Part shown: positions 3,576 to 54,301 of the stretch, in pieces
Numbering within the stretch: position 1 is the stretch's first letter
Layout: the number at the start of each line of letters is the position of its first letter
Origin: Oscillospiraceae bacterium
Lineage (GTDB): Bacteria > Bacillota > Clostridia > Oscillospirales > UBA644
Direction of reading: 5' to 3'
NCBI GenBank assembly: GCA_902783255.1
Contig: CACZQB010000061.1
Span: 17,859-81,858, forward strand
Length of the DNA: 64,000 bases
Notes under the pieces: generated by a model
Seen by the model: the letters and a program-made list of their open reading frames with translations, nothing else
Databases searched by the model: none
Told to the model about the DNA's origin: nothing
Position numbers and translations under genes: made by a program

Positions 3576-3914
3576 TCAGCTGTCTTTGTCTGAACCGCAC
3601 TCGTTTTTGCGGTTTTCGGTGTAGTCGGCGCTGTTATCTTCTTCATCTTCGATAGCTTCCAGAATTATGCCGGGATTTCTGTCGCACGCATCCTTGATGA
3701 CAAGAAGCAGTTTTTTTCCATATTCGCCGAGATTGTCAACAATACTCTGAGGTCCTTTTACCGTTACTTTTACCTCGGGCATCGAAGTGAGAACATCAAA
3801 AAGCGCATCAAGATTTTTTCCGTATTTAGCGGGAAAACCCTCCTGCGCGGAAAAAAATTCATGCGCCTGCTGTTTTGTGTGCAGGTCTTTTCCGTCAATA
3901 ATAATTTCTATCAT
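3576..3914 (-). CDS. barstar family ribonuclease inhibitor with acidic C-terminal tail
   Basis: YGKNLDALFDVLTS matches the barstar core YGENLDALWDCLTG. The gene sits immediately downstream of the barnase-like gene. Confidence 0.85.
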   Translation of the reverse strand: MIEIIIDGKDLHTKQQAHEFFSAQEGFPAKYGKNLDALFDVLTSMPEVKVTVKGPQSIVDNLGEYGKKLLLVIKDACDRNPGIILEAIEDEEDNSADYTENRKNECGSDKDS

Positions 3915-3934
3915 AAAAAAAGCCTTTCTCTTGT

Positions 3935-4630
3935 TTATTCTTCACCGTAAAGAAGTGTGAACGATTCGTAATGATCATCCGTGTAGTAAATAAGACCGTC
4001 GTTTGAAAAAACAATACGCTTTTCTCCGCGTGATTTTCCGAGAGTGTCAATGTCGCACTCCGTATATTTTCTGCCTTTTTTCTCTGGCAGCATACCTTCG
4101 TAATTTCCGAAGTAGTCTCCTCCGATGCTTTTGCCTGGGGCATACGGCTCAAGCTTTCCTCCGTCCCAGCCTAGAGCTCTTGCCTCGTTTTTTGTTATAA
4201 AGTTTGAGGGAAGTCTTCCGTATATATGGATGTAGAGCGCGACGTCATCTTTAGATGTGTAAACCCCGTTTTCATCAAGCGTGGGCTCGCTTTGTGATTC
4301 CGCATTCTCCTCGGCGGCGGGCTTATTCTCATCTGCCGTTTCCGTATCGCTCGGTGTATCCGCAGTTCCTGCGGCGTCGGAATTATTCCCGTTTTCCGTT
4401 TCTGTATCGCTCTGTGTATCAGCATTCTCCGCCGAGTCAGGCTTTTGTTCGTTCTCAGCTTCTGTTTCGGGTTCGGATTCATTCGGAAATTCCGCCTGTG
4501 AGGTCTCTTCCTGCAGGATCGTTTCCACGTCATGAAGAATTTCCTCTACATCAATATCCGCGCACGACGTTAAACATGCCGCCGCGATTGCAAAAGACAA
4601 GAGAAGCGCAAATATCCTTTTGAAATTCAT
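3935..4630 (-). CDS. secreted or lipid-anchored barnase-family ribonuclease
   Basis: The C-terminal domain aligns by eye to barnase: LPSNFITKNEARALGW, APGKSIGGDYFGNYEGMLP, YTECDI (catalytic Glu), RGEKRIVF, DDHYESF (catalytic His). The N-terminus has a signal peptide plus lipobox LTSCAD, followed by a ~110-aa acidic low-complexity linker. Confidence 0.9.
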   Translation of the reverse strand: MNFKRIFALLLSFAIAAACLTSCADIDVEEILHDVETILQEETSQAEFPNESEPETEAENEQKPDSAENADTQSDTETENGNNSDAAGTADTPSDTETADENKPAAEENAESQSEPTLDENGVYTSKDDVALYIHIYGRLPSNFITKNEARALGWDGGKLEPYAPGKSIGGDYFGNYEGMLPEKKGRKYTECDIDTLGKSRGEKRIVFSNDGLIYYTDDHYESFTLLYGEE

Positions 4631-7748: not shown

Positions 7749-7941
7749 AATAAAAATGACGTTCGAACAGGCTATGAACAGAATGGAAGAGATAACTGCC
7801 CGTCTTGCCGACGGCAATCTCGGTATAGACGAATCTTTGGCTCTTTACGAGGAAGGTGTGCGTCTTGCTGCTTTTTGCGATGAAAAGCTGAAAGACGTTC
7901 AGAGAAAAATAACAGTTCTTCAGGAAAAAGAAAATGGATAA
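7735..7941 (+). CDS. xseB: exodeoxyribonuclease VII small subunit
   Basis: FEQAMNRMEEITARLADGNLGIDESLALYEEG is typical XseB. The GTG start at 7735 has GGTGAG 7 nt upstream. The ORF track starts at 7723 and ATG 7756 is also possible. Confidence 0.8.
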   Translation: MSQNEIKMTFEQAMNRMEEITARLADGNLGIDESLALYEEGVRLAAFCDEKLKDVQRKITVLQEKENG

Positions 7942-8803
7942 CTTTAAAGATCAACTTGAAATTTACCGTAATGCCGTAAACGATGCTCTTGATAAAGCGA
8001 TCATTGACAACGGAGAAGAGGCTGTGTCTGCCATGAGATACAGTATCTTTGCAGGCGGAAAACGGATACGAGGCGCCCTTGTTCTCGCCTTCTGCGCCTT
8101 GTTCGGAGGAAAAACGGAAGCAGCACTGCCTTTTGCGTGCGCTATTGAAATGATACATACATATTCGCTTATTTATGATGATCTGCCGTGTATGGATAAC
8201 GATACACTGAGAAGAGGAAAACCCACCAATCACGTCGTTTTCGGCGAAAGCACCGCTTTGATGGCGGGAGCGGGACTTTACGCAAGAGCTTTTGAGGTGA
8301 TAACAGAAAACTCCGTTCTTATGGATCATCAAAAACTTGAAGGCATATCAGTTCTTCTTTCGGCATCAGGTCTTAAAGGCATAATCACGGGTCAGATGCT
8401 CGATCTCAAAAACAGACCGGGACTTTCCGAAAATGAGGTCATGCGAATACACGCACTCAAAACCGGGGCTATGATAGAAGCGTCAGCGATACTGGGCTGT
8501 ATTGCCGCAAATGCCGGAAAAGCAGAAAAAGAGAAAGCAAGAAAATATGCCGAAAATATAGGACTTGCATTTCAGATAAAAGACGACATCCTCGATGTCG
8601 AGGGCAGCGTTGAAGAACTCGGAAAAACGATCGGAAAAGATAAAGCCGAAATGAAAACAACGTTTGTTGATATTCTCGGTATTGAAAAATCACAAAATCA
8701 GGTCGATGCTCTTTCTGCCGCAGCAAAAAAGGAAGTTGCCGATATCGAAGGAAGCGGATTTCTTTGCGCGCTTTCCGATTATCTTGCGGGCAGAAGATCG
8801 TAA
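7934..8803 (+). CDS. ispA: polyprenyl (farnesyl/geranylgeranyl) diphosphate synthase
   Basis: First DDxxD-type motif is YDDLPCMDNDTLRRGKPT and the second is KDDILD. Confidence 0.9.
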   Translation: MDNFKDQLEIYRNAVNDALDKAIIDNGEEAVSAMRYSIFAGGKRIRGALVLAFCALFGGKTEAALPFACAIEMIHTYSLIYDDLPCMDNDTLRRGKPTNHVVFGESTALMAGAGLYARAFEVITENSVLMDHQKLEGISVLLSASGLKGIITGQMLDLKNRPGLSENEVMRIHALKTGAMIEASAILGCIAANAGKAEKEKARKYAENIGLAFQIKDDILDVEGSVEELGKTIGKDKAEMKTTFVDILGIEKSQNQVDALSAAAKKEVADIEGSGFLCALSDYLAGRRS

Positions 8804-8820
8804 AATAAAGGACTGACATT

Positions 8821-9276
8821 ATGCCGGAATTTATTAAAATAATATTTTCAAATCATATTCTCAATACAGGTGTTCTTGCCTGGTTTTTTGCTCAGACCAT
8901 AAAGGGTATTATCGCATCTGTTCAAGCCAAAAAGATTCTTATTGACAGGTTTTTCGGCTCCGGCGGAATGCCGTCAAGCCACAGTTCACTTGTTACGTCC
9001 GTTCTTACGATGGTGTTCCTTATCTGTGGGGTCACCTCCGCTGAATTTGCCATTGCTGCGGTTTTCTGGTTCGTTACTACATACGATGCGGCAAACGTTC
9101 GTTATGCAGTCGGCGAACAGGCTAAAATAATCAATCAGATCATCCTTATCGACGAGCGTGTGGAGAGAGAAAAACTGTTTAAGGAACTTATGGGGCATAC
9201 AAAAACGGAAATATTTTTCGGATGTCTTCTCGGACTTGCAATTGCCTTGATTTACTGGACATTATTTATACATTAA
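8821..9276 (+). CDS. divergent PAP2/DUF212 family membrane protein (acid phosphatase/haloperoxidase-related)
   Basis: 151 aa with several TM segments and a GGMPSSHSS motif. Confidence 0.65.
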   Translation: MPEFIKIIFSNHILNTGVLAWFFAQTIKGIIASVQAKKILIDRFFGSGGMPSSHSSLVTSVLTMVFLICGVTSAEFAIAAVFWFVTTYDAANVRYAVGEQAKIINQIILIDERVEREKLFKELMGHTKTEIFFGCLLGLAIALIYWTLFIH

Positions 9277-9321
9277 AGTATTAAATAAAAGTGAAATGTA
9301 TAAGTTTTTATGCAAAACTAC

Positions 9322-9350
9322 TTGAAAAAAGTGAATAAGTATGATATAAT
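9322..9350 (+). promoter_or_regulatory. sigma-A type promoter in front of the large ncRNA
   Basis: TTGAAA (9322-9327), a 17-nt spacer, then TATAAT (9345-9350). Confidence 0.6.
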
Positions 9351-9356
9351 AAAAAA

Positions 9357-9975
9357 TAGATGATACAGTATCCTAGTCCGATCATCAGGCTACCAGGGTG
9401 GGCCTAAAAATCCACCGAAGGGCACATCTGTGAAACTTCTTGTGCTTGCTTCTTACGCCCAGTCTGGGGTGAGTGCTGGAAGGAAGTTCTTTTACCCTCA
9501 AGTATCTGGACTTGGGACTGCCGGGCGCCCGCAACGGCATGCGCAAGCGATCCCGTCGTCTTTGGAGACCTGCTCTCGTGGCTTGCAATATATAAAAAGT
9601 TACGGTTCAGGATTAAACCTGCAAGGCGGTTCGTTTCAGGAAAAAACCGAAAACGTGCTGTATGCAGTCGTAGCCTGTCTTGAGTGGACCCGGCGGATTG
9701 CGGCCGGACTGTGGACCATGGCCGTGGACCATAGTCTTTTGCGTTTGAAACCGGAGCTGCAAAAGAGACTAAGAGCTTTGTTGATCAGGTTAAGGAAAAC
9801 TTCTAGGCTGAGAAATATATTTCTGCATTCAAAGGATTGCAGTACGTGCTGAGTGGCAATCAAGTCGTATATGCGGCAACGCTGTACCTCGAGCTTTAAA
9901 GGGAAACCTCCTTTGCGGCGACGGAAGGAAGCTCCCGGGGAAACCTACTTGACCTAAGACGTAAGATTTACTTTG
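9357..9975 (+). ncRNA. OLE-type (ornate, large, extremophilic) structured RNA candidate
   Basis: An ~800-bp gap contains only implausible overlapping ORFs. It is GC-richer than neighbouring spacers and has many local helices: GGTGG 9397-9401/CCACC 9412-9416; GACTGTGG 9707-9714/CCATAGTC 9729-9736; GAGCTT 9891-9896/AAGCTC 9929-9934; two GG-GAAA-CC mini-hairpins at 9901-9909 and 9938-9946. It has its own promoter and no terminator before the next CDS. The synteny ispA ... RNA-4TM protein-tlyA-nadK-argR-recN matches the published OLE context. The ends given are approximate. Confidence 0.7.
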
Positions 9976-10075
9976 AATGTTATCATCACTTTTTTTGAAA
10001 CTATCTGCCGCGGTTCCGTATTTCGGATTTGCGACAGATTAATTGTATTTACTATATGCAAGAGAAAGGAAATAT

Positions 10076-10750
10076 ATGGAATCGGACGATAAACCCCGAT
10101 TATCGCAGCAGGCAGAAAATAAAAATGCCGATGTGATCGGCGGAAAAGACCCTGCTGCGGAAAAAGAAAAACAGAAGTCAAAAGAAAAAGACAGAAAAAA
10201 GCATATTGTCAACTGGAACTGGACACTGAAGATACTTGCCGTAACATTTATTCTTTCTTTCGGCATGTCGTATCTTTCTGAAAGCGTTCTTGCAGATGTC
10301 AATATAGTTATTGCATTTTTCGTTCTCATTTTCTTTATAGCCGTAGGCGTAATGTTTGATACTGTGGGGACCGCGATCATGGCGGTCGACGCAAAATCAT
10401 TCAATTCTATGGCGGCAAAAAAAGTAAAAGGCGCAAAAACCGCGCTTTCCCTTATCGCAAAAGCGCCCGCGGTATCTAATTTCTGTAATGACGTTATCGG
10501 CGATATCTGCGGAGTTATAAGCGGAACGACATGCTCTGTTCTTGCACTTAAGTTTGCGGAAATTTTTTCTTCCGACAGATTCCTGACTGTTTTTTTGTTT
10601 ACCGCCGTTACCGCATCGCTCACAGTCGGTCTGAAAGCGATCGGCAAAAATATAGCTATCGTATTCGGAGACAAAATAATATATGCGATTTCACGCGTAA
10701 TTTGTATTTTTATTCCGGAACGTGTTGCAGATCAGAAAAAGAAAAAATAA
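10076..10750 (+). CDS. oapA: 4-TM membrane protein, OLE-associated protein A candidate
   Basis: Lies directly downstream of the RNA with RBS AAAGGA 7 nt before ATG 10076. A charged N-terminus is followed by 4 predicted TM helices with paired motifs MFDTVGTAIMA and NDVIGDICGVISG. The stop overlaps the tlyA start (TAATG). Confidence 0.6.
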   Translation: MESDDKPRLSQQAENKNADVIGGKDPAAEKEKQKSKEKDRKKHIVNWNWTLKILAVTFILSFGMSYLSESVLADVNIVIAFFVLIFFIAVGVMFDTVGTAIMAVDAKSFNSMAAKKVKGAKTALSLIAKAPAVSNFCNDVIGDICGVISGTTCSVLALKFAEIFSSDRFLTVFLFTAVTASLTVGLKAIGKNIAIVFGDKIIYAISRVICIFIPERVADQKKKK

Positions 10751-11472
10751 TGCGTCTTGATATATTTGTATTCAACAATTTTTCGCTCAAAAGCAGAGAA
10801 TATGCAAGAACGCTCATAAAAAACGGAGACGTTCTTGTAAACGGCATTCCAGAAACAAAAGCGGGTCGCGAAGTATGCGGCAATGAAGACATAACGGTCA
10901 ATGATTCTCTTCGTTACGTCGGCAGGGGAGGACTTAAGCTTGAACATGCCCTTAAGGTATTCGGGATTTCCGCAGAGGGACGCACGGCACTTGATATCGG
11001 AGCGTCAACGGGAGGATTTACCGATTGTCTGCTGCAAAACGGTGCCGTTAAAGTATACGCATGCGACGTAGGTCACGCACAGCTTGCAGAAAAACTGAAA
11101 AACGATAAAAGAGTCGTCGATCTTGAAGGAACGCATATCAATGCTCTTTCCGCGGAAAGAGTAGGCAAAGTCGGAATAATAACCTGTGACGTCTCCTTTA
11201 TTTCGCTCAGGCATGTTTTGCCCTATTTGAAAATATTTGCAGATACGCCGTGCGATATCATCTGTCTGTTCAAACCGCAGTTTGAATACGGAAAAAAAGT
11301 TAAAAACGGTGTCATTAAAGACGAGATCATACATAAAAGTCTTCTTGAAAATTTCATAACATTTGCCGAAAAAGAAGGTTTTATTGTTATAAATACAGAT
11401 GTTTCACCTATACTCGGCGGTGACGGGAATAAAGAATTCCTTTTGCATTTACAGCTGCAGAATGCAGATTGA
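10750..11472 (+). CDS. tlyA: TlyA family rRNA (cytidine-2'-O)-methyltransferase
   Basis: S4-like N-terminus MRLDIFVFNN...RTLIKNGDVLVNG followed by a FtsJ-type SAM motif LDIGASTGGFTD. Confidence 0.85.
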   Translation: MRLDIFVFNNFSLKSREYARTLIKNGDVLVNGIPETKAGREVCGNEDITVNDSLRYVGRGGLKLEHALKVFGISAEGRTALDIGASTGGFTDCLLQNGAVKVYACDVGHAQLAEKLKNDKRVVDLEGTHINALSAERVGKVGIITCDVSFISLRHVLPYLKIFADTPCDIICLFKPQFEYGKKVKNGVIKDEIIHKSLLENFITFAEKEGFIVINTDVSPILGGDGNKEFLLHLQLQNAD

Positions 11473-11486
11473 TTCGGGGTATTCAT

Positions 11487-12296
11487 ATGAAATTCGCAGT
11501 AATTACAAATAAAGAGCGCGACAGTGATCTTTCTGTCACAAAAGAGATCGTTTCCTGCCTTTCTGCTCACGGAGCGGAGAGCAATGTAGTATCTTCTCCG
11601 GCTGACCTTTCGGCAATAATCGGCGACTGTCAGGCTGCCGTTACGGTCGGAGGCGACGGCACGATCCTTGCAATAGCAGATATCGCAGCCAAAGAAGGAT
11701 GTCCCGTGATAGGCGTAAACAAAGGCAATCTCGGATATCTTGCAGGTCTTGAACCTGACGGTATTTCCGCTCTTTCCCGACTTGTGACGGGAGATTATTC
11801 CGTAGAAAACAGAATGATGCTTAAAGCTACTGTTTCTTTCCCCGATAAAAAGTGCGATTTTTATGCGCTCAACGATATCGTCATAACTCACGATTCCGTG
11901 CTTAAACTGATCGATTTCAACCTGTCGTGCGACTGCTTCGAGATTGCTCATTATCGTGCCGACGGTATTATTTTTGCGACTCCAACGGGTTCTACCGCTT
12001 ATTCTCTTTCCGCAGGAGGCCCTGTGACAGATCCTGCTCTGAATGCGATCATCGTGACCCCCATTTGCGCTCACACCCTCAATGCACGTCCCGTTATTTT
12101 CAACGACGGTGCAATGCTTTCGGTTCTCGGTTCTCCGAGAGATAACGATCGTGTTCGTATTTATTCGGACGGAGGCGAAGGAGTTTCTATTCCCTCCAAA
12201 ACACCTGTTACCATTTCAAAATCACCTTTTTCTCTTAAACTGATACGGTTCGATCCGAACTCGTTTTATAATATTCTTTCAAAAAAAATACATTAG
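11487..12296 (+). CDS. nadK: NAD kinase
   Basis: Contains GGDGT (VGGDGTILA) and NxGxLGFL-like (NKGNLGYLA) motifs. ATG 11487 was verified in the sequence. Confidence 0.9.
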   Translation: MKFAVITNKERDSDLSVTKEIVSCLSAHGAESNVVSSPADLSAIIGDCQAAVTVGGDGTILAIADIAAKEGCPVIGVNKGNLGYLAGLEPDGISALSRLVTGDYSVENRMMLKATVSFPDKKCDFYALNDIVITHDSVLKLIDFNLSCDCFEIAHYRADGIIFATPTGSTAYSLSAGGPVTDPALNAIIVTPICAHTLNARPVIFNDGAMLSVLGSPRDNDRVRIYSDGGEGVSIPSKTPVTISKSPFSLKLIRFDPNSFYNILSKKIH

Positions 12297-12308
12297 GGGA
12301 CAGATCAA

Positions 12309-12776
12309 ATGAAACAAAAAAGCAGAAGGCACTCAAAAATAATAGAAATCGTCCGCAATGAACAGATCGAGACCCAGGACGATCTTACCGCCAGACTTAA
12401 CAGAGAAGGCTTTACCGCAACCCAGGCAACCGTATCAAGAGATATAAAAGAGTTGCAGCTTGTTAAAATTCTGACAAACGAAAACAAATACAGATACGCT
12501 CTTCCGTCCAAAACAGCACAGTCTCAGCCGCTGTTGCCGTCCAAATTCCTCGGCATTATCCGTGAAGGCATAGTATCTGTTGAGCAAGCGCAGAATCTTG
12601 TAGTCGTTAAATGCTATTCAGGTATGGCGCAGGGCGTCTGCGCCGCGATAGACTCACTTGAGCGCGACGGCGTTATCGGATCTATAGCGGGTGACGATAC
12701 GATATTTCTCGCAACAAGAGACAATACTGTTGCCGAAAATATCGTGGATAACATTAAATCAACGCTCAGCATCTGA
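12309..12776 (+). CDS. argR: arginine repressor
   Basis: Winged-helix N-terminus (TQDDLTARLNREGFTATQATVSRDIKEL) and a C-terminal GTIAGDDT-like motif (GSIAGDDTIFL). Confidence 0.9.
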   Translation: MKQKSRRHSKIIEIVRNEQIETQDDLTARLNREGFTATQATVSRDIKELQLVKILTNENKYRYALPSKTAQSQPLLPSKFLGIIREGIVSVEQAQNLVVVKCYSGMAQGVCAAIDSLERDGVIGSIAGDDTIFLATRDNTVAENIVDNIKSTLSI

Positions 12777-12799
12777 TCCGCAAGACTGAAAGGAAAAAT

Positions 12800-14458
12800 A
12801 TGTTCACCTCTCTGCATATCGAAAACATAGCCGTTATAGAAACGGCAGATATTTCTTTTTCCGCCGGACTGAATGTTCTGACGGGCGAGACAGGTGCCGG
12901 CAAAAGTATGATAATCGACGCGATAAACATGATCACCGGAGGCAGAACAAGCAAAGATATAATAAGAACAGGATGCAAAAAAGCCTATGCTTCGGCAACT
13001 TTTAACATTTCAGACAGAACGGTATCCGACCTCTTGAATGAATTCGGGATCGATGCCGAAGACGGAGAGCTTATTGTTTCGAGAGAAATAAATTCTGACG
13101 GACGCAGTGTTGCGCGCGCAAACGGAAGGCAGATTACTGTTGCAATGCTTCGCGAACTCGGTAAAAATCTTATAAATATTCACGGACAGCACGACAACAT
13201 TGCGCTTTCAGATCCGTCCACCCATCTTTCTTATCTTGATTCGTTTGCCGAAAATGAAACAGAAAGAAACGGATATTCGGAAAAATATACAAAAGTTAAA
13301 AACATACAAAAACAGATCGATCTTCTATCCGTTGACGAACGGGAAAAGGCAATGCGAACAGATATCCTCAGATATCAGATTAACGAGCTTGAGGCTGCCG
13401 CACTTACGCCGGGGGAAGACGAATTACTTGAAAAACGCAGACTTTCTCTTGTAAACAGAGAAAAAGTCATAAACGGTTTTTATGCGGCAAAAGAAGCTCT
13501 TTGCGGAGGAGATACAAACGCAAGAGATCTTGCTTCATCTGCCGTAATCGAGCTTGATTATATAGCACGCTTTGATGAAGACGCCGCTTCGCTTTCGGAA
13601 CGTCTTCACGATGTTTTTGCGGAGCTTGACGATATTTCAGATGATATTTCGCATTATGCGGATAACCTTGACGATGACATCTCAGAACTTGACGGTATAG
13701 AGTCCCGCCTTGACATGATAAGAGGGTTCCGCAGAAAATACGGCAACACCGTTACCGAAATGCTCGGATTTCTTGAAAATGCGAAAAAAGAGCTTGAAAA
13801 AATCGAGTTTTCTGATGAAAAAATAGCAGTTCTTCAAAAAGAACTGGTATTGGCTCAATCCGAACTTGATAAAGCCTCAAAAAAACTGACTGAAAGCAGA
13901 AAAAACGCTGCCGAAAAACTTGAAAAAGCGATCACGGGCGAACTTGTATTCCTTGATATGCCAAAAGTTCGTTTTTCCGTCGAAATCACACATAAACAGC
14001 AGGAAAAAGACGGGGCTGACAGCGTGGAATTTCTGATCTCCGCTAATATCGGCGAAGACCTCAAACCTCTTGCGTCTATCGCATCCGGGGGCGAGCTTTC
14101 AAGAATTATGCTTGCCGTTAAAAATATCCTTTCAAAAAACGGCGCAGAGACGCTTGTTTTTGACGAAATAGATACGGGTGTCAGCGGTCGTGCCGCTCAG
14201 AAAATAGCAATTAAACTCAAGCAGATGGCAGAAAAGGATCAGGTAGCCGTTGTTACGCATCTTGCCCAGATAGCCGCAAAAGCAGATACGCATTTCGTTA
14301 TTTCAAAAGAAGCAAAAGACGGCAGAACATATACTAAAGTTACTCCGGTTTCTGGCGAGGCCAGAATAAATGAAATAGCCCGGATCATGGGCGGAGACAG
14401 CATAACCCCCGCACTTTTACAGACCGCGCGGGAAATGATCGACGATCAGACACTATAA
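12800..14458 (+). CDS. recN: DNA repair protein RecN
   Basis: Walker A GETGAGKS, a long coiled-coil middle region, and the C-terminal ABC signature SGGELSRIMLA plus Walker B LVFDEIDTG. Confidence 0.9.
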   Translation: MFTSLHIENIAVIETADISFSAGLNVLTGETGAGKSMIIDAINMITGGRTSKDIIRTGCKKAYASATFNISDRTVSDLLNEFGIDAEDGELIVSREINSDGRSVARANGRQITVAMLRELGKNLINIHGQHDNIALSDPSTHLSYLDSFAENETERNGYSEKYTKVKNIQKQIDLLSVDEREKAMRTDILRYQINELEAAALTPGEDELLEKRRLSLVNREKVINGFYAAKEALCGGDTNARDLASSAVIELDYIARFDEDAASLSERLHDVFAELDDISDDISHYADNLDDDISELDGIESRLDMIRGFRRKYGNTVTEMLGFLENAKKELEKIEFSDEKIAVLQKELVLAQSELDKASKKLTESRKNAAEKLEKAITGELVFLDMPKVRFSVEITHKQQEKDGADSVEFLISANIGEDLKPLASIASGGELSRIMLAVKNILSKNGAETLVFDEIDTGVSGRAAQKIAIKLKQMAEKDQVAVVTHLAQIAAKADTHFVISKEAKDGRTYTKVTPVSGEARINEIARIMGGDSITPALLQTAREMIDDQTL

Positions 14459-25261: not shown

Positions 25262-25335
25262 GCGGGTGTAGTTCAGTGGTAGAACCCTAGCCTTCCAAGC
25301 TAGTTGTGCGGGTTCGATTCCCGTCACCCGCTCCA
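25262..25335 (+). tRNA. tRNA-Gly (anticodon UCC)
   Basis: Folded by hand into a cloverleaf: acceptor GCGGGTG/CACCCGC, anticodon stem CTAGC/GCTAG with loop CT-TCC-AA, T-loop TTCGATT, and an encoded CCA. Confidence 0.9.
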
Positions 25336-25470: not shown

Positions 25471-26247
25471 ATGTATTCTGTTATTCACGATATACTCTGC
25501 GACCGCAAAGGCGGAGATATTTTTACTTGTTTCGGACCGTTTCACATCTGCTTTATACTTTTTATTTTCGCTCTTATTTGCGTTGTCAGTATCCTTATTA
25601 AAAATAAAAGCGGCGCCATCAGGGAAAAAACATGCAATTTTTTTATTTCCGCAGCGTTTGCTCTTTATATTGCTGACTTTTTTCTCATGCCATTTGCGTA
25701 TGAAGAAATCGATATCGAAAAACTTCCGTTTCACGTTTGCACCGCAATGTGCGTGATGTGTTTTTTGAGCAGACACGTTAAATTCCTTTCTGAATATAAA
25801 ATGAATTTTGCCTTGCTCGGCTTTATATCAAATTTAGTCTACCTTATTTATCCTGCGGGCGTAATGTGGCATGCCGTCCATCCGTTTACATACCGTGTTG
25901 TTCAAACTCTTTTGTTCCACGGCGTAATGACTGCATACGGTTTTTTAACGATCGTTTTTGAAAATGGATTTTCCGTCAAAAACTTCCGTAAAGACATTGC
26001 GGTCCTTGTTGGTATGACATTGTGGGCACTTTTGGGCAATTTCCTTTACAATGGCTCCGCAGGCAGTTATTCTGCGAATTACAACTGGTTTTTTGTCACA
26101 GCAGACCCGTTCGGAATTCTCGATAAAAGCGTTTCAGTCTTTATTATGCCGTTTTTAAACATCATAATATTCTTTGCGGCTGAAATGCTGGTTTATTTTA
26201 TTTATCATTCGGCAAAGCGCGTGCTGTCAAAAAAAAATCATAATTAA
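25471..26247 (+). CDS. polytopic membrane protein (YwaF/TIGR02206-like)
   Basis: 258 aa with about 7 hydrophobic segments and RBS GAGGAG. The family call is tentative and from memory. Confidence 0.4.
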   Translation: MYSVIHDILCDRKGGDIFTCFGPFHICFILFIFALICVVSILIKNKSGAIREKTCNFFISAAFALYIADFFLMPFAYEEIDIEKLPFHVCTAMCVMCFLSRHVKFLSEYKMNFALLGFISNLVYLIYPAGVMWHAVHPFTYRVVQTLLFHGVMTAYGFLTIVFENGFSVKNFRKDIAVLVGMTLWALLGNFLYNGSAGSYSANYNWFFVTADPFGILDKSVSVFIMPFLNIIIFFAAEMLVYFIYHSAKRVLSKKNHN

Positions 26248-26258: not shown

Positions 26259-27263
26259 ATGAAAGGTGCATGTAATTTCAGCAGGGAGCTTTTGAAAAAA
26301 ACAGTTCCGTCAATGTCGTTCAATGGCGGTGATATCACCGCATGGCAGAAAAGATCAAGGGAAAAGCTGATCGAACTTCTCGGAATAAATAAAATAGAAA
26401 AATGCAATCCGGCTTTGCAGATCGAATACACGCAAAAAATCGACAGTGAGACCGAAATACGCTTTAGTTTTCAGAGCGAAGAGGGGTACCGCGTTCCCTG
26501 TCATCTGCTTTTGCCCGACGGAGTAAAAAATCCCCCTGTTATGATCTGCCTTCAGGGACACAGCAAGGGTATGCATGTTTCGCTGGACAGAACCGTCTAT
26601 CCGGGCGAAGAAAAGGCTTCTCTTGTTGGCGGTGACCGCGATTTTGCGATGAGGGCTTTGCGTGAAGGTTTCGCGGCAATAGCATGCGAACAAAGAAATT
26701 TCGGCGAATGCGGAGGCACGGCGAACGGTCCCGCATGTTACGAGGAAAGCATGAATGCGCTTCTCATGGGAAGAACTACTATCGGTGAACGCGTGTGGGA
26801 TATCATGCGACTGATAGACGTTCTTGAGTCCGATTTTTCGGACAAAACAGATATAAACTGCATATGTATTATGGGTAATTCCGGCGGTGGTACGGCAACA
26901 GCATATACAGCAGCGCTTGACAGTCGCCTCGTTCTTGCAATGCCTTCCTGCGCAGTCTGCTCATACAAAGCCTCTATCGGGGCTATGAATCACTGTTCAT
27001 GCAATTATGTTCCGCATATAATGGAATATTTTGATATGGGCGATCTTATTTGTATGGCTGCTCCCACCGCCTATATACAGGTGAACGGGGATGCGGATCC
27101 CATATTTCCGATTGACGGCGCAAAAGAAGTGTTCATTCAGGGCAAAAAAGCATACGATGCGCTTGGTATTTCAGATAAAATCGTTCATGTGATCGGAAAA
27201 GGAGATCATCGCTTTTTTGCAGATGATTCATGGCCTTTTGTTCATAAATTTACAGGCAGGTAA
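26259..27263 (+). CDS. alpha/beta hydrolase (acetyl-xylan-esterase/dienelactone-hydrolase-like)
   Basis: Nucleophile elbow GNSGG (IMGNSGGG), with late Asp and His residues (GDADP..., GDHRF). Confidence 0.6.
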   Translation: MKGACNFSRELLKKTVPSMSFNGGDITAWQKRSREKLIELLGINKIEKCNPALQIEYTQKIDSETEIRFSFQSEEGYRVPCHLLLPDGVKNPPVMICLQGHSKGMHVSLDRTVYPGEEKASLVGGDRDFAMRALREGFAAIACEQRNFGECGGTANGPACYEESMNALLMGRTTIGERVWDIMRLIDVLESDFSDKTDINCICIMGNSGGGTATAYTAALDSRLVLAMPSCAVCSYKASIGAMNHCSCNYVPHIMEYFDMGDLICMAAPTAYIQVNGDADPIFPIDGAKEVFIQGKKAYDALGISDKIVHVIGKGDHRFFADDSWPFVHKFTGR

Positions 27264-27267
27264 AAAA

Positions 27268-27948
27268 ATGAAGATACTATTCCTCGGAACCGGTGCCGCA
27301 GACTGGCCCGCAGAAAGACCTGCTGACGCAAAAGAACACAGAAGATTATCGTCTGCTCTCATAGACGATATACTGCTGATAGATCCTAACCAATGTGTTT
27401 TCGACGCATTGAAAGAATACTGCAAAGATCCTGCAAAAATAAAATATATTATCAATACTCACCCTCACAGCGACCACTATTGCGAAGAAACGGTAAAAGA
27501 GCTCGAAAAAAGCGGCGCGGTTTTTATTCCTTTTTACGCAGGTGATCAAAAAACCGTCGGTAAATACACCGTAAGGGCGTATGCGGCTAATCATTCCACT
27601 GCTGATTTGCCGGTCCATTTTATTGTTTCGGACGGCGCAAAGACCCTGTTTTACGGACTTGACGGCGCATGGCTTTTATACGGCGAAGTTCAGGCGATAA
27701 AAAAGTATCGTCCGGATCTTGCCGTATTAGATGCTACAGTAGGGTTTATAGACGGCGACTACCGTATTTTTGAGCATAATGATCTGTATATGGTTCTTGA
27801 AATGAAAAAATCACTTGAAAAATACATAGGCGCATTCTGTATAAGCCATATGGCAAGAACACTTCATCAGGATCATAAGGCTCTCAGCGAAAAAATGAAC
27901 GGATACGGCGTAATAACGGCTTATGACGGAATGGAATACGAACTGTGA
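27268..27948 (+). CDS. MBL-fold metallo-hydrolase
   Basis: MKILFLGTGAA followed by an HxHxDH-type motif THPHSDH. ATG 27268 was verified. Confidence 0.7.
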   Translation: MKILFLGTGAADWPAERPADAKEHRRLSSALIDDILLIDPNQCVFDALKEYCKDPAKIKYIINTHPHSDHYCEETVKELEKSGAVFIPFYAGDQKTVGKYTVRAYAANHSTADLPVHFIVSDGAKTLFYGLDGAWLLYGEVQAIKKYRPDLAVLDATVGFIDGDYRIFEHNDLYMVLEMKKSLEKYIGAFCISHMARTLHQDHKALSEKMNGYGVITAYDGMEYEL

Positions 27949-29441: not shown

Positions 29442-30764
29442 GTGATCTTTGCTATTATTTCCGCAATACTGCTTTTTCTGTTTCTTGTTTATATTTTCTT
29501 TCTTGCGCGACCGCTTTCAAAAAATCCGCAAAACCCTGATGTTTTATGCGAATACGCTCACAGAGGGCTTTACGGCGGAAGTATTCCCGAAAACTCTCTT
29601 GCCGCGTTTGAACGGGCGATCAACCGTAGCGTTGGCATCGAGCTTGACGTTCAGTTGTCTTCAGACGGAGAAGTATTTGTTTTTCATGACAGCGATCTGA
29701 AAAGAATGACGGGTGTAAACGGGCAGCTTTGTAAAATGATGTCTCATCAGATCGAAGAACTTCGTTTATCCGAAACAGACATGCATATACCTAAGCTTAG
29801 TGAAGTTCTGTCTCTTGTTAACGGAAGAGTTCCGATACTCGTTGAATTGAAAGGTGAAAACCTTGACACCTCTCTCTGCGATAAAATCGCGCCGATTTTA
29901 AAAGAATATTCAGGGGATTATATAGTAGAGTCTTTTAATCCGTTTCTTATTCGAAAAATAAAAAAGCTTATTCCGGATGTTTTTGCAGGACAGCTGTATA
30001 CAAATGTATGCAAAGAACAGAAAAAATACAATCCCATTACGTTTATGCTCACCATTATGGCTTTTAATTTCGTCTCGCGTCCCGCTTTTATAGCGTATAA
30101 CAAAGAATACGGAAGATCTTTCCCTGTCCGGCTTACCACAGAGTTTTTTCATGCACATAAATTTGTGTGGACCGTAAAAGGGGAAGAGGAACTTCAATGC
30201 GCCCGTTCTCTTAAAGAACACGCCATTTTTGAGGAGGTTTTTGATACGAAAAAAACGGAACTCTCTTCTTCGGCATATTTTGCCGGCGGATGTTTTTGGT
30301 GCATTACCCCCGATTTTAAAGAAAAAAACGGAGTTGTGGCAGTTACTGCGGGCTTTTCCGGAGGAGAAGAGAAAGACCCGAGCTATCTTGATGTAAAACA
30401 TCAAAAAACAGGACACCGTGAAACCGTAAAAGTCGATTATGATCCCGATACCGTTTCTTTTGATGAGCTTTTTGATATTTTTTTATTAAATGTCGATCCT
30501 TTTGATAAAGACGGTCAGTTTATCGACAGAGGCCATTCTTACACTCTTGCGGTTTATTATACAAGCGAAAGCGAAAAGCATATCGCAGAAAAAAAGATAA
30601 CAGAACTTGAAACGGACTCGGGAAAAAGCGTTTATATAAGCGTGGAGCCGTTTAAAACCTTTTATGAAGCAGGGCAGGAGCATCAGGATTATTATCTTAA
30701 ACATCCTGAAGAATTTGCCTGCGAAATAAAAAATTCGGGCAGAAAAAAGAAAAATCTGAAATAA
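29442..30764 (+). CDS. membrane-anchored glycerophosphodiester phosphodiesterase fused to peptide-methionine (S)-S-oxide reductase MsrA
   Basis: One N-terminal TM segment. The GDPD motifs are AHRG...PENSLAAFERA and GIELDVQLSSDGEVFVFHD. After about residue 270 come MsrA motifs: GGCFWC, GHRETVKVDYDP, DPFDKDGQFIDRGHSY and HQDYYLKHP. It is one uninterrupted ORF with a GTG start. Confidence 0.8.
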   Translation: MIFAIISAILLFLFLVYIFFLARPLSKNPQNPDVLCEYAHRGLYGGSIPENSLAAFERAINRSVGIELDVQLSSDGEVFVFHDSDLKRMTGVNGQLCKMMSHQIEELRLSETDMHIPKLSEVLSLVNGRVPILVELKGENLDTSLCDKIAPILKEYSGDYIVESFNPFLIRKIKKLIPDVFAGQLYTNVCKEQKKYNPITFMLTIMAFNFVSRPAFIAYNKEYGRSFPVRLTTEFFHAHKFVWTVKGEEELQCARSLKEHAIFEEVFDTKKTELSSSAYFAGGCFWCITPDFKEKNGVVAVTAGFSGGEEKDPSYLDVKHQKTGHRETVKVDYDPDTVSFDELFDIFLLNVDPFDKDGQFIDRGHSYTLAVYYTSESEKHIAEKKITELETDSGKSVYISVEPFKTFYEAGQEHQDYYLKHPEEFACEIKNSGRKKKNLK

Positions 30765-34290: not shown

Positions 34291-34330
34291 TTTATTCTTT
34301 ATGAAAAAGTATTATATACTGTATGCTTAT

Positions 34331-34756
34331 TTACTTTTCTGCCAGAATACGAAGAGCTTCGATATATCCGGCAAATCCCTTTCCCTTTACTGTTGCGGCG
34401 CAAACAGGTCTGACATACGATATTTTTCTGAATTCCTCTCTCGTGTCGGGGTCTGATATGTGGACCTCCACTGTTTTAATGCCTACTGCTTTGATCGCAT
34501 CGGCGATCGCAATGCTCGTATGCGTATATGCCGCCGGATTAATTATTATTCCGTCAAATACGCCGTATGCCTTCTGTATTTCGTCTACTATTTCACCTTC
34601 ATGATTAGATTGAAAAAAACTGACTGAAACGCTGATATTATCAGCTTCTTTTTTTATCTTATCAATAAGCTCGGCATAAGTTTCTTTGCCGTAAATATCA
34701 GGCTCGCGTATTCCGAGCATATTGATGTTCGGACCGTTAATAACAAGAATTTTCAA
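34331..34756 (-). CDS. aroQ: type II 3-dehydroquinate dehydratase
   Basis: (L/M)KILVINGPNINMLGIREPDIYG is the canonical AroQ N-terminus. A TTG start (complement of 34754-34756) has GGAGGG upstream. The ORF track extends further 5'. Confidence 0.9.
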   Translation of the reverse strand: MKILVINGPNINMLGIREPDIYGKETYAELIDKIKKEADNISVSVSFFQSNHEGEIVDEIQKAYGVFDGIIINPAAYTHTSIAIADAIKAVGIKTVEVHISDPDTREEFRKISYVRPVCAATVKGKGFAGYIEALRILAEK

Positions 34757-35978
34757 AAAAATCCCTCCGTATCTTTTCTGCGGTATCTTCAGGCGTTGCA
34801 TTGTTCTCTACACAGACATCTCTGAACTTTTCATACATCGGCATTCTTTTTTTATACATTTCAACAAGATTGGCGCCTTGCGAAAGCGGACGTCCGTTTG
34901 TGGAAAGCAGAGAAATATCTCTTTTTATTTCGTATATCCGTCCGTTTTGTTTCAGAGAGTCATAGTTTGCATCTACCGTAACTGCTCCGCCTCCGGTTAC
35001 GATTATTTTGCCTGATTTTTTCCCCTCGTTTTCAATTATCCTTTGCTCTGTTTCGCGAAAACCCTTTTCTTTGCATTCTTCAAATATCTGAGGAATGCTT
35101 TTACCTGTTTCCTGCTCTATGATCTTGTCGATATCAATCACTTCTCTTCCGGTAAGCAGGGAAAGAGCAGCTCCCACCGTGCTTTTTCCGCTGCCCGGCA
35201 TGCCGATAAGAACGATGTTTTCTTTCTCTTTTGCAAGCAGATCTGCCTTTTTTTTGGCGGTCTTTTCATCTGTTTCCGTGTCAAAAAAATACCCGTTGGC
35301 TTTTATTGCCTGTGCTGTAAGCATTATCAGACCGCCTGCAAACGGTATGCCGAGTTTTTTTGCGTCAAGGAGCAGTTTTGTGCGAAGCGGATTGTATATC
35401 ATATCCGCAACCCCGCAGCATGAGGAAAAATTTTCAAGCTCAACAGGCGATTTTCCGTTATCGGGGAACATTCCTACAGGCGTAGCGTTTATTATTATGT
35501 CCGCATCGTAATGTATGTCTATATTCCCATAATTATCTTTACCGCTTCGCGAAATCGTTACCACTTCTTTGGCTCCAAGATGCTTTACGCAGTAATCTGC
35601 CGTCTTCCCCGCGCCTCCGCTGCCAAGAACGATCACTTTTTTCCCTTCAACATTTATCCCGCCGTTTTTAAGCATTGCTTCAAAACCGTATTTATCCGTA
35701 TTGTAACCGAATAGTTTACCGTTTCTGTTCACTATGGTGTTTACTGCACCTATTTCTTTTGCTTCGGGCGAAATAAAATCGCAGTAATCCATTACAGCAA
35801 CTTTATACGGAATAGTAACGTTCAGGGCGCCGATATTCTTTTGACGTATAAACGATCCAAGGTCGTCGGGCTCAAGTTCATAAAGTCTGTAAGCGTTGTT
35901 GCCGAGCATTCGGTGAACTGAAACGGAATAGCTGTGACCGAGTTTTCTGCCCAGAAGCCCGTAGATTTTATCTTCCAT
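34737..35978 (-). CDS. aroE: fused shikimate dehydrogenase / shikimate kinase
   Basis: The N-terminal ~270 aa are AroE-like (YGLLGRKLGHSYSVSVH, NVTIPYK, GSGGAGK). The C-terminal ~150 aa are AroK-like (NIVLIGMPGSGKSTVG Walker A). It is a single ORF. Confidence 0.85.
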   Translation of the reverse strand: MEDKIYGLLGRKLGHSYSVSVHRMLGNNAYRLYELEPDDLGSFIRQKNIGALNVTIPYKVAVMDYCDFISPEAKEIGAVNTIVNRNGKLFGYNTDKYGFEAMLKNGGINVEGKKVIVLGSGGAGKTADYCVKHLGAKEVVTISRSGKDNYGNIDIHYDADIIINATPVGMFPDNGKSPVELENFSSCCGVADMIYNPLRTKLLLDAKKLGIPFAGGLIMLTAQAIKANGYFFDTETDEKTAKKKADLLAKEKENIVLIGMPGSGKSTVGAALSLLTGREVIDIDKIIEQETGKSIPQIFEECKEKGFRETEQRIIENEGKKSGKIIVTGGGAVTVDANYDSLKQNGRIYEIKRDISLLSTNGRPLSQGANLVEMYKKRMPMYEKFRDVCVENNATPEDTAEKIRRDFFENSCY

Positions 35979-41538: not shown

Positions 41539-41571
41539 AAAAAAAACTCACAGCCGGTGTTCAGCTGTGAG
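41539..41571 (-). terminator. intrinsic terminator (attenuator segment 3:4) directly upstream of the DAHP synthase RBS
   Basis: On the minus strand, CTCACAGC (41571-41564), loop TGAACACCG, GCTGTGAG (41554-41547), then T8 (41546-41539) running straight into GGAGG-N7-ATG. Confidence 0.85.
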
Positions 41572-41622
41572 AATATTGTGTATTATTGTTCGGAGTTTTC
41601 ACTCAAAATTCTTTACACTTTT

Positions 41623-41712
41623 TCAGCTAAACACAACCGGGCTTTGCTTGTTAAAGTAAAATGCAAAACCGAAAAAGAAATATTCAGCTGTAAAAAAGCG
41701 AGATCTTTTCAT
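41623..41712 (-). CDS. aro leader peptide, 29 aa, MKRSRFFTAEYFFFGFAFYFNKQSPVVFS
   Basis: Translated by hand base by base. GGAG lies 6 nt upstream of the ATG. The peptide has 9 Phe and 2 Tyr codons in 29. The stop codon TGA lies inside attenuator segment 2. It is below the ORF-track length cutoff. Confidence 0.7.
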   Translation of the reverse strand: MKRSRFFTAEYFFFGFAFYFNKQSPVVFS

Positions 41713-41743
41713 TACAAACTCCGTTTTGACTCAGTATGCGTGT

Positions 41744-41771
41744 ATTATAGCACAACCGTTTTTTTTGTCAA
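41744..41771 (-). promoter_or_regulatory. sigma-A promoter of the aro operon leader
   Basis: On the minus strand: TTGACA (41771-41766), 16-nt spacer, TATAAT (41749-41744). Confidence 0.7.
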
Positions 41772-41817
41772 GAGTAAAACTTTCGATTTTACAAATTTTT
41801 CAGAATTAAGTCTGCTT

Positions 41818-42168
41818 TTACGTGTTTTTATCCGTTGAGTGAAAAGTTTTAAGATTGCCTGTTTTTAACGATCTTTTTTCAAGTTCGGCATTGATGTCGT
41901 CAGGTGATATGCCGAGGGATGCCATCATAACCGTAAGATGATAATACAGATCGCATATTTCTCCTATAAGCTCGGACCTTTTTTCCGTATCACCGTCTGC
42001 GCGTTCGGCGTTTTTTGCGGCAATAACCGTTTCGGCGCATTCTTCTCCAACTTTTTTCAGTATCTTGTCAAGTCCTTTTTCAAAAAGATAACAGGTATAA
42101 GATCCTTCCGTTTTTTCGGTTTTTCTTGACAGCACAACGTCGTAAAGTTCGCTTAATGTATCTTTCAT
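41818..42168 (-). CDS. hisE: phosphoribosyl-ATP diphosphatase
   Basis: MazG-like HisE pattern [31 protein letters not shown]. Confidence 0.9.
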
Positions 42169-53882: not shown

Positions 53883-54064
53883 ATCGTTCTCCTGTTTTTT
53901 ATTAATCTTTTGTCTATATATTCCCTTATATTATAATAATACACTAAAATGTTCATCTTGTCAATCACTTTTTAAAAAACATTTTTTATTTTTTAATATT
54001 ATTACATTGTTGATATTCGTTCATTGAGTTCACAAAAATATCACAAAAATCCGAAAAAAGAGTA

Positions 54065-54093
54065 TTGACAAATCCGTTCGTTTAGTGTATACT
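54065..54093 (+). promoter_or_regulatory. sigma-A promoter of the tRNA-Met/tRNA-Glu pair
   Basis: TTGACA 54065-54070, 17-nt spacer, TATACT 54088-54093. Confidence 0.65.
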
Positions 54094-54139
54094 ATATAAG
54101 CTGTCTGATATCTGTATCAGATTTCAGGAGAGCTGGTAT

Positions 54140-54216: not shown

Positions 54217-54219
54217 TTC

Positions 54220-54294: not shown

Positions 54295-54301
54295 TAATTC
54301 A

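Follow-up and report, generated by a model that had tools for sequence, protein, structure and literature searches.

To our knowledge, no biochemical function is known for any OLE ribonucleoprotein (RNP), and OLE ranks among the largest bacterial non-coding RNAs lacking known biochemistry; for this reason, each well-delimited OLE locus is useful for comparison. The family has thousands of known representatives (PMC11332333), and the systems with which the present locus can be compared most directly are the OLE RNAs of Halalkalibacterium halodurans and Clostridium acetobutylicum/botulinum (Rfam family RF01071). The protein partner OapA is distinguished by a DxxxD motif and matches the Pfam family PF01595 below threshold (PMC11332333), and it carries a conserved cluster of basic residues on a cytoplasmic loop (PMC12265935). 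Across genomes, the occurrence of MpfA is anticorrelated with that of OLE (PMC11332333). [quoted passage not shown] Both variants lose structure: P7, P8 and P9 are shorter or absent, and the OapB site is lost.

The locus described here lies within a 64-kb stretch of DNA (the window) and is almost certainly a standard ole-oapA locus, carried by an uncultured gut bacterium of the Clostridia. Its ole and oapA belong to an already well-known Firmicute RNA-protein system. The initial annotation had proposed an OLE RNP locus with an oapA-like partner, and this was borne out by the match to RF01071 and by the sequence-level criteria for OapA. In common with the OLE RNAs of H. halodurans and C. acetobutylicum/botulinum, the RNA has the same length, the conserved loops and junctions, the helices P1-P15 as annotated by the model, and specifically P7, P8, a long P9 and the P13 GNRA loop with its bulge; oapA lies directly 3', and the surroundings are of the same ispA...tlyA/nadK/argR/recN type. 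The cluster differs from these known loci in having no dxs. Like variants 1 and 2, the RNA shows a lineage-specific departure in an uncultured gut member of the Bacillota, but it keeps the elements that those variants lose and gains a hairpin at J5/6. With the exception of this hairpin, the locus adds little beyond another full-length OLE from uncultured gut Clostridia.

Genomic context

The gap at positions 9277-10075 (799 nt) is the largest between plausible genes in the 64-kb window, as had been claimed for it; the next ones measure 415, 261 and 230 nt. Upstream on the + strand are ispA (7934-8803) and a DUF212/divergent-PAP2 gene (8821-9276), which lies immediately 5' of ole and forms with ispA a block at 7934-9276. 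Downstream, also on the + strand, oapA is followed by tlyA, encoding an rRNA 2'-O-methyltransferase (10750-11472), and by nadK, argR and recN (11469-14458), the usual neighbours 3' of ole-oapA.

The DUF212 gene and the genes appended after recN had initially been regarded as local peculiarities, and the survey of loci contradicts this view. Of the 17 sampled loci having ispA upstream, 13 have the DUF212 gene separating it from ole. This gene is a recurrent neighbour, not a local oddity; recN is followed by tyrS in nine of the sampled OLE loci and by valS in three. The order ispA-DUF212-ole-oapA-tlyA-nadK-argR-recN(-tyrS) recurs across many OLE loci, and the gene order matches that of Alkaliphilus, Anaerobacterium and many metagenome-assembled genomes (MAGs). 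The nearest loci come from MAGs titled Clostridia, Oscillospiraceae or Eubacteriales (the taxonomy being that of the record titles), which fits an anaerobic or extremophilic Bacillota host. An identical oapA is also present in the NCBI MAG assemblies GCA_017426505.1 and GCA_018396375.1, and a 100%-identical 224-aa protein was recorded in 22 contigs examined.

Identification and architecture of the OLE RNA

The covariance-model search that the initial annotation had recommended gave a full-length match: RF01071 (OLE) aligns to positions 9344-10002 (+) with 395.6 bits (E 1e-112), compared with a cut-off (curated gathering score) of 50 bits, and the alignment covers model positions 1-616 of 616 without truncation. 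At the same position in related loci, the model scores 406 (L001), 398 (L002), 436 (L003) and 264 bits (L023). Of 80 loci encoding a homologue of the downstream 224-aa protein, 77 have an OLE immediately 5' of that gene and in the same orientation, according to nhmmer. The three others (L006, L041 and L073) have oapA-like genes without OLE: a search for divergent OLE in them, extended to E 1, gave no match, and no gap of ~600 nt was found 5' of their oapA homologues. This indicates that ole and oapA are separable in evolution. The predicted OLE RNA is ~640 nt long (9357-9996, +), its presumed ends being taken from the promoter on one side and from P1 and the U-run that follows it on the other. 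Its GC content is 49.1%, whereas the window as a whole has 43.0% and the other spacers have 25-41%, which confirms that it is GC-richer than other spacers. Its sequence is nearly unchanged across species in which OapA is only 60-78% identical.

In the RF01071 alignment, P4 is a GGTGG/CCACC hairpin (9397-9416, +) with the conserved A-rich loop CCUAAAAA; in cryo-EM structures, the A-rich P4 loop is a dimerisation contact (PMC12265935). Positions 9436-9483 (+) form the P5/P5.1 hairpin, whose conserved loop is GCCCAG, and positions 9514-9562 (+) form the P6/P6.1 hairpin, with CAACGGCAUGC as its conserved loop. The model also aligns to two hairpins, at 9570-9613 and at 9616-9667, to the long arm of P9, and to P13 including its GCAA loop and bulged U. 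The terminal loop of P9, AUGGCCG (9718-9724, +), contains a palindromic GGCC (9720-9723), and the palindromic loop of P9 is known as a kissing-loop dimer contact (PMC12265935). P13 reads GUAUA-U(bulge, 9872)-GCG[GCAA]CGC-UGUAC (9867-9887, +). Since a GNRA tetraloop together with a single bulged U constitutes the OapB-binding signature (PMC7936274), the predicted OapB site in P13 is intact. The GCGA tetraloop of P14.1 (9918-9921, +) corresponds to the weak secondary OapB site (PMC7936274). All of the conserved motifs are present, with posterior '*': the A-rich L4, GCCCAG, GGCAUG, AUUAAACCUG, GUAGCCUG, GCAAAAGAG, GGAAAAC, UAAAGGGAAACC, GGGGAAACCU and GACCUAAG. By the published definitions, the RNA belongs to the full-length type, having P7, P8, a long P9 and the OapB site of P13, and not to variant 1 or 2.

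The helices listed in the initial annotation agreed with this alignment in part. GGTGG/CCACC (P4), GACTGTGG/CCATAGTC (P9) and GAGC/GCTC (P14) are pairings of the family. The proposed AGTCTTTTGC/GCAAAAGAGACT helix, on the other hand, differs from the family pairing, in which GCAAAAGAGAC pairs with the upstream GUCUUGAGUGG, and the two GGGAAACC motifs, taken at first for tetraloop hairpins, are conserved junction/internal-loop sequences in the Rfam consensus.

Promoter, 3' end and intergenic region

A sigma-70-type promoter precedes ole at 9322-9350 (+), as annotated from the outset, and consists of a -35 box TTGAAA (9322-9327), a 17-nt spacer and a TGn extended -10 box TATAAT (9345-9350). It is near-consensus, with a score of 11/12 and the TG of the extended -10 present; the boxes are kept at the equal position in L001, L002 and L003, and the predicted transcription start is at ~9357. 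The entire RNA is closed by P1 (9359-9365 with 9981-9987, +), read from the sequence as the 7-bp helix GAUGAUA/UAUCAUC. At these places, the Rfam consensus has GUGGU/ACCAC, i.e., the pairing is retained while the sequence is different.

Two bases past P1 is a run of seven U residues (U7; 9990-9996, +), and the Rfam consensus likewise has a U-run at this place. The terminator scan does not call a terminator here, nor does it find any terminator-like site on the + strand between the OLE RNA and the oapA coding sequence (CDS). To this extent, the statement that no terminator precedes the CDS was correct, but it did not take into account that a 7-bp P1 followed two bases on by U7 amounts to a weak terminator-like or end-defining signal; U7 could mark the 3' end or bring about partial termination. 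Between ole and oapA, a hairpin without a U-tail, AUCUGCCGCGG...UUUGCGACAGAU, is predicted at 10003-10039 (+). It is predicted in the window, L001, L002, L087 and L088, with the same outer arms and differing inner sequences, and is absent from L003, L089 and L090.

The downstream protein

Directly 3' of ole, oapA (10076-10750, +) is preceded by the ribosome-binding site AAAGGA at a distance of 8 nt and encodes a protein of 224 aa. In line with the initial annotation, its TAA (10748-10750) overlaps the ATG of tlyA (10750-10752) by one base, and the AF2 model of the product (mean pLDDT 74) has four long transmembrane (TM) helices (47-72, 77-103, 130-164 and 168-196); two short helices lie in the 2-3 loop. 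Residues 1-45 form a disordered, K/E-rich N-terminal tail (pLDDT below 50), longer than in other OapA proteins; the total length is 224 aa, compared with ~180-200 aa in most homologues. The DxxxD motif is D139-V-I-G-D143, with CNDVIGD invariant in 30 homologues, and the basic loop K115-K121 lies in a segment, S111-M-A-A-K-K-V-K-G-A-K121, that is nearly invariant among homologues.

With default thresholds, Pfam and NCBIfam assign no family to the protein; its membership was shown by other means, because these collections are without a curated OapA model. In total, 2401 homologues were found. In a BLASTP comparison with the OapA of Kretsch et al., as it stands in the machine-read PDF of their Supplementary Table 4, 175 aa aligned with 38% identity (E 1e-28). 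The PF01595 match of 17.9 bits is below the gathering score of 28.4, and 28 of 30 family members also match weakly, a behaviour reported for OapA (PMC11332333). A sequence search of the PDB with the protein returned only chance-level matches to LolE and no OapA structure on record, and the top five PDB fold matches were all CNNM membrane domains of CorB/CorC (7m1t, 7m1u, 7cff). Considering the four TM helices, DxxxD, the basic cytoplasmic loop, the identity to the published sequence, the CorB/CNNM-like fold and the location 3' of ole, with OLE upstream in nearly all homologue loci, the predicted 224-aa protein is OapA by every sequence-level criterion, which answers the question that the initial annotation had raised about its family. 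It shares with the MpfA/CorB/CorC Mg2+ transporters a distantly related membrane-domain fold and the weak PF01595 match, but unlike them it has no CBS/CorC domains and possesses an extra TM helix, DxxxD and an association with RNA. With PF01595 below its gathering score and no other domain found, OapA is related to the CNNM/MpfA family and is not a member of it.

Alternative explanations

Several other readings of the locus should be considered. The probability that the gap codes for protein and not for RNA, by the 140-aa ORF at 9430-9852 or the antisense ORFs, is practically nil. The three overlapping ORFs reported earlier do exist (9430-9852 +, 9385-9588 - and 9636-9863 -), but they have no ribosome-binding site; the 140-aa frame is interrupted in the ~90%-identical L001, where no frame has a stop-free run longer than 77 aa (60 aa in L003), and substitutions track base-pairing, not codons. 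The closed frame in L001 and the covariance-model match at E 1e-112 led us to reject this reading. We also consider it very unlikely that the segment is a decaying OLE remnant or a mere structured 5' leader of oapA without an RNA product of its own. The lack of a classical terminator from the RNA to oapA would suit such a leader, as would the oapA-like genes of L006, L041 and L073, which show that the pair can be separated; against this stand the full model coverage with every highly conserved motif intact, the conserved promoter, the P1 closure and U-run marking a discrete unit, the compensatory changes inside the clade and the near constancy of OLE between species whose OapA proteins have diverged to 60-78% identity.

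It is extremely unlikely that the downstream protein is a stand-alone Mg2+ transporter of the CNNM/MpfA type and not an OLE-binding OapA. This reading draws on the weak PF01595 match and on the leading position of CorB/CorC among the structural matches, but the PF01595 score is under the gathering score, CBS and CorC_HlyC domains are absent, the TM helices number four and not three, DxxxD is present, which is lacking in CNNM domains (PMC11332333), and OLE lies directly upstream in 77/80 homologue loci.

Proposed mechanism and partner genes

For a standard ole-oapA locus, the following scheme can be proposed. The strong sigma-A-type promoter, of which the sequence and conservation are observed and the activity is presumed, would produce the ~640-nt RNA. 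As no classical terminator follows ole, some transcripts probably extend into oapA-tlyA-nadK-argR-recN, and upstream transcription may also cover the block as part of the nusB...recN cluster; these expectations derive from the gene order, the overlapping stop and start codons and the H. halodurans data. As the covariance-model alignment shows, the RNA has the conserved family architecture, with P1 closure, the A-rich L4, the GCCCAG/GGCAUG loops, the palindromic L9 and the GNRA loops of P13/P14.1. By homology, it would dimerise, and a dimer of OapA, with its four helices and CNNM-like fold, would bind it at the membrane; OapB would be recruited at P13, giving a membrane-associated OLE RNP. The literature suggests that this RNP may help the cell to withstand cold, short-chain alcohols and excess Mg2+ and to live on poor carbon sources.

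The oapB (ybzG) and oapC (ybxF) genes are normally located away from ole. In the 64-kb window, ten small ORFs compared with Pfam gave no L7Ae or KOW match, the published sequences of OapC and RpsU gave no match in tblastn, and no MpfA was present among the part of the window ORFs that was scanned.

A clade-specific hairpin at J5/6

The one real departure of the locus from standard OLE is a 30-nt hairpin in J5/6 (9484-9513, +), which is extra relative to the RF01071 consensus and is treated by the Rfam model as an insertion. On an invariant base, AAG/CUU, it has a variable stem of 9 bp and the loop CCUCAA (9496-9501), so that UUAA of the consensus J5/6 becomes G-AAG...CUU. Among 10 distinct sequences from relatives, 87% of cells are paired, and compensatory changes occur at 9 of the 12 pairs; none of 500 shuffles reaches the score of the hairpin, slid controls give 27-42%, and the loop, (C/A)CUCAA, is invariant in the clade. 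Measured from strict anchors, because GGGCATATC mis-anchors, the P5 and P6 loops are 76-78 nt apart only in the clade of the window; in the 51 other loci, the spacing is 48-51 nt. Within the set of 67 OLE loci, the hairpin is restricted to this clade and is absent in 51/51 others.

Junction J4a/5 contains the bulged k-turn strand, CAC-AUC-UGU-GAAA (9423-9435, +) in the RF01071 alignment versus CAC-AUC-GAU-GAAG in the consensus; the bulge is UGU, not GAU, and the non-canonical stem GAAA, not GAAG. In the C. acetobutylicum OLE, k-turn residues 67-74 are CGAUGAAG (PMC9723947). Mapping of these published residues onto the C. acetobutylicum sequence, in a machine-read copy of 564 nt versus about 577 whose numbering beyond ~75 holds within a few nt, ruled out J4a/5 as the insertion site and placed it in J5/6. 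The bulged strand retains AUC-NNN-GA (9426-9433) and J6/7 UUGGAGA is conserved, while the J5/6 strand is remodelled by the inserted hairpin; traced by hand in the clade of the window, the GAAA/G-AAG pairing is ambiguous. This k-turn has been proposed to be the site of OapC, and one of its strands carries the hairpin; because the hairpin remodels this partner strand, OapC binding should not be assumed.

We put forward, as a tentative and rather doubtful proposal, that the hairpin may act as an added functional element at the P5/P6/k-turn hub, where it would replace or reposition OapC binding or make a new contact. If so, it would represent a natural "gain-of-structure" OLE variant, helpful for dissecting the RNP. 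Two recent papers differ in their interpretation of the k-turn/OapC junction, and a natural variant exactly there could help to decide on the k-turn strands and on whether all lineages need OapC. Candidate contacts could be the unusually long basic N-terminal tail of the OapA of this clade or the sequence UUGAG at 9671-9675, which is complementary to the hairpin loop and universally conserved.

OLE RNA

According to our analysis, this locus is an ordinary full-length OLE locus; the OLE interpretation of the initial annotation, made from the sequence alone, is correct and the finding is real. The covariance-model check proposed there returned a full-length match: in the Rfam 15 scan of the whole window, RF01071 (OLE) matched 9344-10002 (+) with 395.6 bits (E 1e-112) against a gathering score of 50, untruncated over model positions 1-616 of 616, and was the sole non-tRNA match. 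In the RF01071 alignment the highly conserved OLE motifs, all on the + strand, were aligned with top posterior probability, namely the A-rich P4 loop (9403-9410), the GCCCAG and GGCAUG loops, the motifs AUUAAACCUG, GUAGCCUG and GCAAAAGAG, the GGCC palindrome of the P9 loop (9720-9723), and the motifs UAAAGGGAAACC, GGGGAAACCU and GACCUAAG. The RNA has both variable hairpins (P7 and P8) as well as the long P9 arm; P14.1 ends in GCGA (9918-9921, +), and P13 (GUAUA-U-GCG[GCAA]CGC-UGUAC, 9867-9887, +) carries a GNRA tetraloop and a single bulged U, the two features needed by OapB (PMC7936274). Because the conserved motifs, P7, P8, the long P9 and the P13 features are all present, the RNA belongs to the "full-length" type rather than to either variant (1 or 2) described by Fernando and Breaker (PMC11332333). 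Three of the five local helices claimed earlier are the family helices P4, P9 and P14. The proposed AGTCTTTTGC/GCAAAAGAGACT pairing was rejected, as the model pairs GCAAAAGAGAC with the upstream GUCUUGAGUGG, and the two GGGAAACC motifs taken for tetraloop hairpins are unpaired conserved elements in the Rfam consensus.

The RNA occupies what had been described as the largest gene-free gap, and 9277-10075 (799 nt) indeed ranks first among stretches of the window without a plausible gene, the next measuring 415, 261 and 230 nt. It is also GC-richer than the spacers, with 49.1% G+C in the RNA region versus 43.0% in the window and 25–41% in six other spacers.

Transcript boundaries

The TTGAAA-17-TATAAT promoter suggested at 9322-9350 scores 11/12 against the consensus, and its -10 box is extended by TGn. 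Since both boxes (-35 and extended -10) keep their register in three other OapA-encoding loci (L001, L002 and L003), the sequence supports a dedicated ole promoter, with a predicted start near 9357. Two bases past this start, GAUGAUA (9359-9365) can pair as P1 with UAUCAUC (9981-9987), at places where the Rfam consensus has GUGGU/ACCAC; a U7 run (9990-9996) follows P1 by two bases, and the consensus has a U-run there too. As had been stated, the + strand shows nothing terminator-like ahead of the next coding sequence. We infer an OLE RNA of ~640 nt, whose 3' end would be defined either by P1 plus the U-run or through processing, with transcription continuing into oapA. Between ole and the oapA ribosome-binding site, a hairpin (AUCUGCCGCGG...UUUGCGACAGAU, 10003-10039) is predicted in the window and in L001, L002, L087 and L088, with the same outer arms and different inner sequences. 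This second clade-level feature lacks a U-tail and hence is no classical terminator; it may serve in processing or stabilisation.

OapA and its association with OLE

The oapA gene starts with ATG at 10076, with AAAGGA 8 nt upstream, encodes 224 aa and, as noted earlier, overlaps tlyA, one base being common to its stop and the tlyA start (TAA/ATG at 10750). Neither Pfam nor NCBIfam at default thresholds assigned the protein to a family, and no sequence relative was found in the PDB; the databases contain 2401 homologues. In an alignment of 30 of these, CNDVIGD (D139-D143) is invariant and S111-M-A-A-K-K-V-K-G-A-K121 nearly so, corresponding to the DxxxD motif (PMC11332333) and the basic cytoplasmic cluster (PMC12265935) described for OapA. 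The AlphaFold2 model (mean pLDDT 74, N-terminal tail disordered) has four long helices (47-72, 77-103, 130-164 and 168-196), in agreement with the four TM helices predicted earlier. When the model was compared with PDB folds, the top five hits were all CNNM membrane domains, including MtCorB (7m1t, 7m1u) and CorC (7cff), with a best E of 5e-3 and TM-scores of 0.44-0.51; 7M1U is likewise the top match reported for H. halodurans OapA (PMC11332333). PF01595 scored 17.9 bits on the window protein, under the cut-off of 28.4, and weakly matched 28/30 family members, as it does published OapA. A published OapA, printed by Kretsch et al. (Supplementary Table 4), is 38% identical to it over 175 residues (E 1e-28).

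The strongest test of OapA identity is co-occurrence with OLE. Among the best 80 homologue-encoding loci, drawn from GTDB contigs at one genome per species, 77 carry an OLE immediately 5' of the homologue gene in the same orientation (nhmmer), and all four of those also scanned with Rfam gave full-length OLE (264-436 bits). Motifs, fold, homology to published OapA and this co-occurrence together identify the downstream protein as an OapA. The other three loci encode an OapA homologue (L006, 5959-6561; L041, 5519-6079; L073, 5998-6552) but gave no OLE hit nearby (Rfam, E up to 1) and have no ~600-nt gap upstream of it; L073, from Anaerofustis stercorihominis, retains oapA-tlyA-nadK-argR-recN. 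These loci may have lost ole or moved it elsewhere, or OapA may be able to work without OLE.

The + strand order in the window is nusB, a TsaD-family gene, xseA, xseB, ispA, DUF212, ole, oapA, tlyA, nadK, argR, recN, tyrS, valS, an aldo-keto reductase gene and der. The features regarded as local peculiarities are not peculiar, because they recur across OLE loci: by tblastn of window proteins against the 80 loci, with counts limited by 6-kb flanks, among the 17 loci showing ispA upstream, DUF212 separates it from ole in 13 (Alkaliphilus transvaalensis and Anaerobacterium chartisolvens included), and tyrS and valS occur in 9 and 3 loci, tlyA following oapA in 42 and recN occurring in 38. An identical OapA is encoded on at least 22 public contigs, including MAG assemblies GCA_017426505.1 and GCA_018396375.1, in the same gene order throughout the 22; the closest relatives at species level carry the record titles uncultured Clostridia (78%) and Oscillospiraceae (60%). 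The window yielded no L7Ae-type (OapC), KOW-type (OapB) or bS21 gene, and the window ORFs scanned included no CNNM-CBS protein (MpfA).

Alternative explanations and possible function

The three ORFs listed for the gap all exist, but protein coding is refuted by the relatives: the 140-aa frame is broken in the closest one, and no frame stays open for more than 77 aa in L001 or 60 aa in L003. That ole is a decaying remnant, or a mere leader of oapA, is unlikely given its conservation over the full length, the compensatory changes and the conserved promoter. The CNNM-like fold could point to a stand-alone CNNM transporter, but the Pfam score below threshold, the lack of CBS or CorC domains, the DxxxD motif and the linkage to OLE do not support this.

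Both genes are members of their families, OLE, which has >2,800 representatives in GTDB genomes (PMC11332333), and OapA. At the sequence level, promoter signals and putative dimerisation loops are conserved, the predicted OapB site is intact and the packing is operon-like. By analogy with work on H. halodurans and with clostridial cryo-EM structures, the RNA would dimerise and be bound at the membrane by OapA, and also by OapB and probably OapC, and the RNP may act in tolerance to cold, alcohols, Mg2+ and poor carbon sources.

Lineage-specific hairpin in J5/6

After P5 the covariance model opened a ~28-nt insertion, which forms the hairpin AAG-UUCUUUUAC-CCUCAA-GUAUCUGGA-CUU (9484-9513, +). It is shared by ten distinct sequences of the window's clade (the window, L001, L094, L093, L002, L087, L091, L088, L089 and L092), whose OapA proteins are 55–79% identical to that of the window. 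The AAG/CUU base is invariant and the loop reads (C/A)CUCAA, while the 9-bp stem varies freely and stays complementary: 87% of cells are paired, 9/12 pairs show both-sided changes, and the covariation score of 0.57 (0.21 when shuffled) was reached by 0/500 shuffles. Sliding the partner strand by 1-3 columns left only 27–42% paired. The distance between the P5 and P6 loops is 76-78 nt only in this clade versus 48-51 nt in the 51 other loci measured, including the sister L003. We consider the hairpin a well-supported, modest lineage variant that deserves a line in a comparative study. Its loop CUCAA (9496-9501) is complementary to UUGAG (9671-9675) within the universally conserved CUUGAGUGG; both are invariant, so that no covariation signal is possible for a contact.

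The C. acetobutylicum k-turn, the proposed OapC site, comprises residues 67-74, 123-127 and 173-179 (cryo-EM paper), which on the printed sequence are CGAUGAAG (J4a/5), part of the UUAAA of J5/6, and GUGGAGG (J6/7), the J5/6 and J6/7 positions being approximate because the machine-read copy is short by about 13 nt. Any k-turn in the window RNA would have CAC-AUC-UGU-GAAA (9423-9435) as its bulged strand, an unaltered UUGGAGA at J6/7, and G-[AAG...CUU]-GGG in place of UUAA-GG at J5/6. In the hairpin-bearing clade, OapA residues 1-45 (10076-10210) form a long, disordered, K/E-rich tail with a conserved start, M-[ED]-[ST]-x-[DG]-K-P-R, most homologues being 20-30 residues shorter; a link between this tail and the extra hairpin is speculation.

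Other genes of the window

Putative ORFs at 25471-26247 and 27217-27948, and small ones at 1429-1752, 34323-34604, 41557-41838, 53628-53936 and 59756-60073, matched no Pfam family at the thresholds applied. Rfam located three tRNA genes (+) at 25262-25332, 54140-54213 and 54220-54291, the latter two in tandem inside the 415-nt gap (53937-54351). At 3576-4630 (-), the gene for a barnase-family ribonuclease of 231 aa, extended at its N terminus, directly precedes one for a barstar-family inhibitor (112 aa). Fused genes include a 440-aa ORF joining a glycerophosphodiester phosphodiesterase domain to MsrA, a peptide methionine sulfoxide reductase (29442-30764, +), and an aroE-aroK-like fusion of a shikimate dehydrogenase N-domain and shikimate kinase (34737-35978, -) in an aromatic amino-acid operon (pheA, aroC, aroA, aroB, 35.9-40.5 kb). 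A single 550-aa ORF (47527-49179, -) combines a HisRS-like (HisZ-type) domain with HisG (ATP phosphoribosyltransferase) and looks like a hisZ-hisG fusion heading a his operon (about 41.8-49.2 kb).
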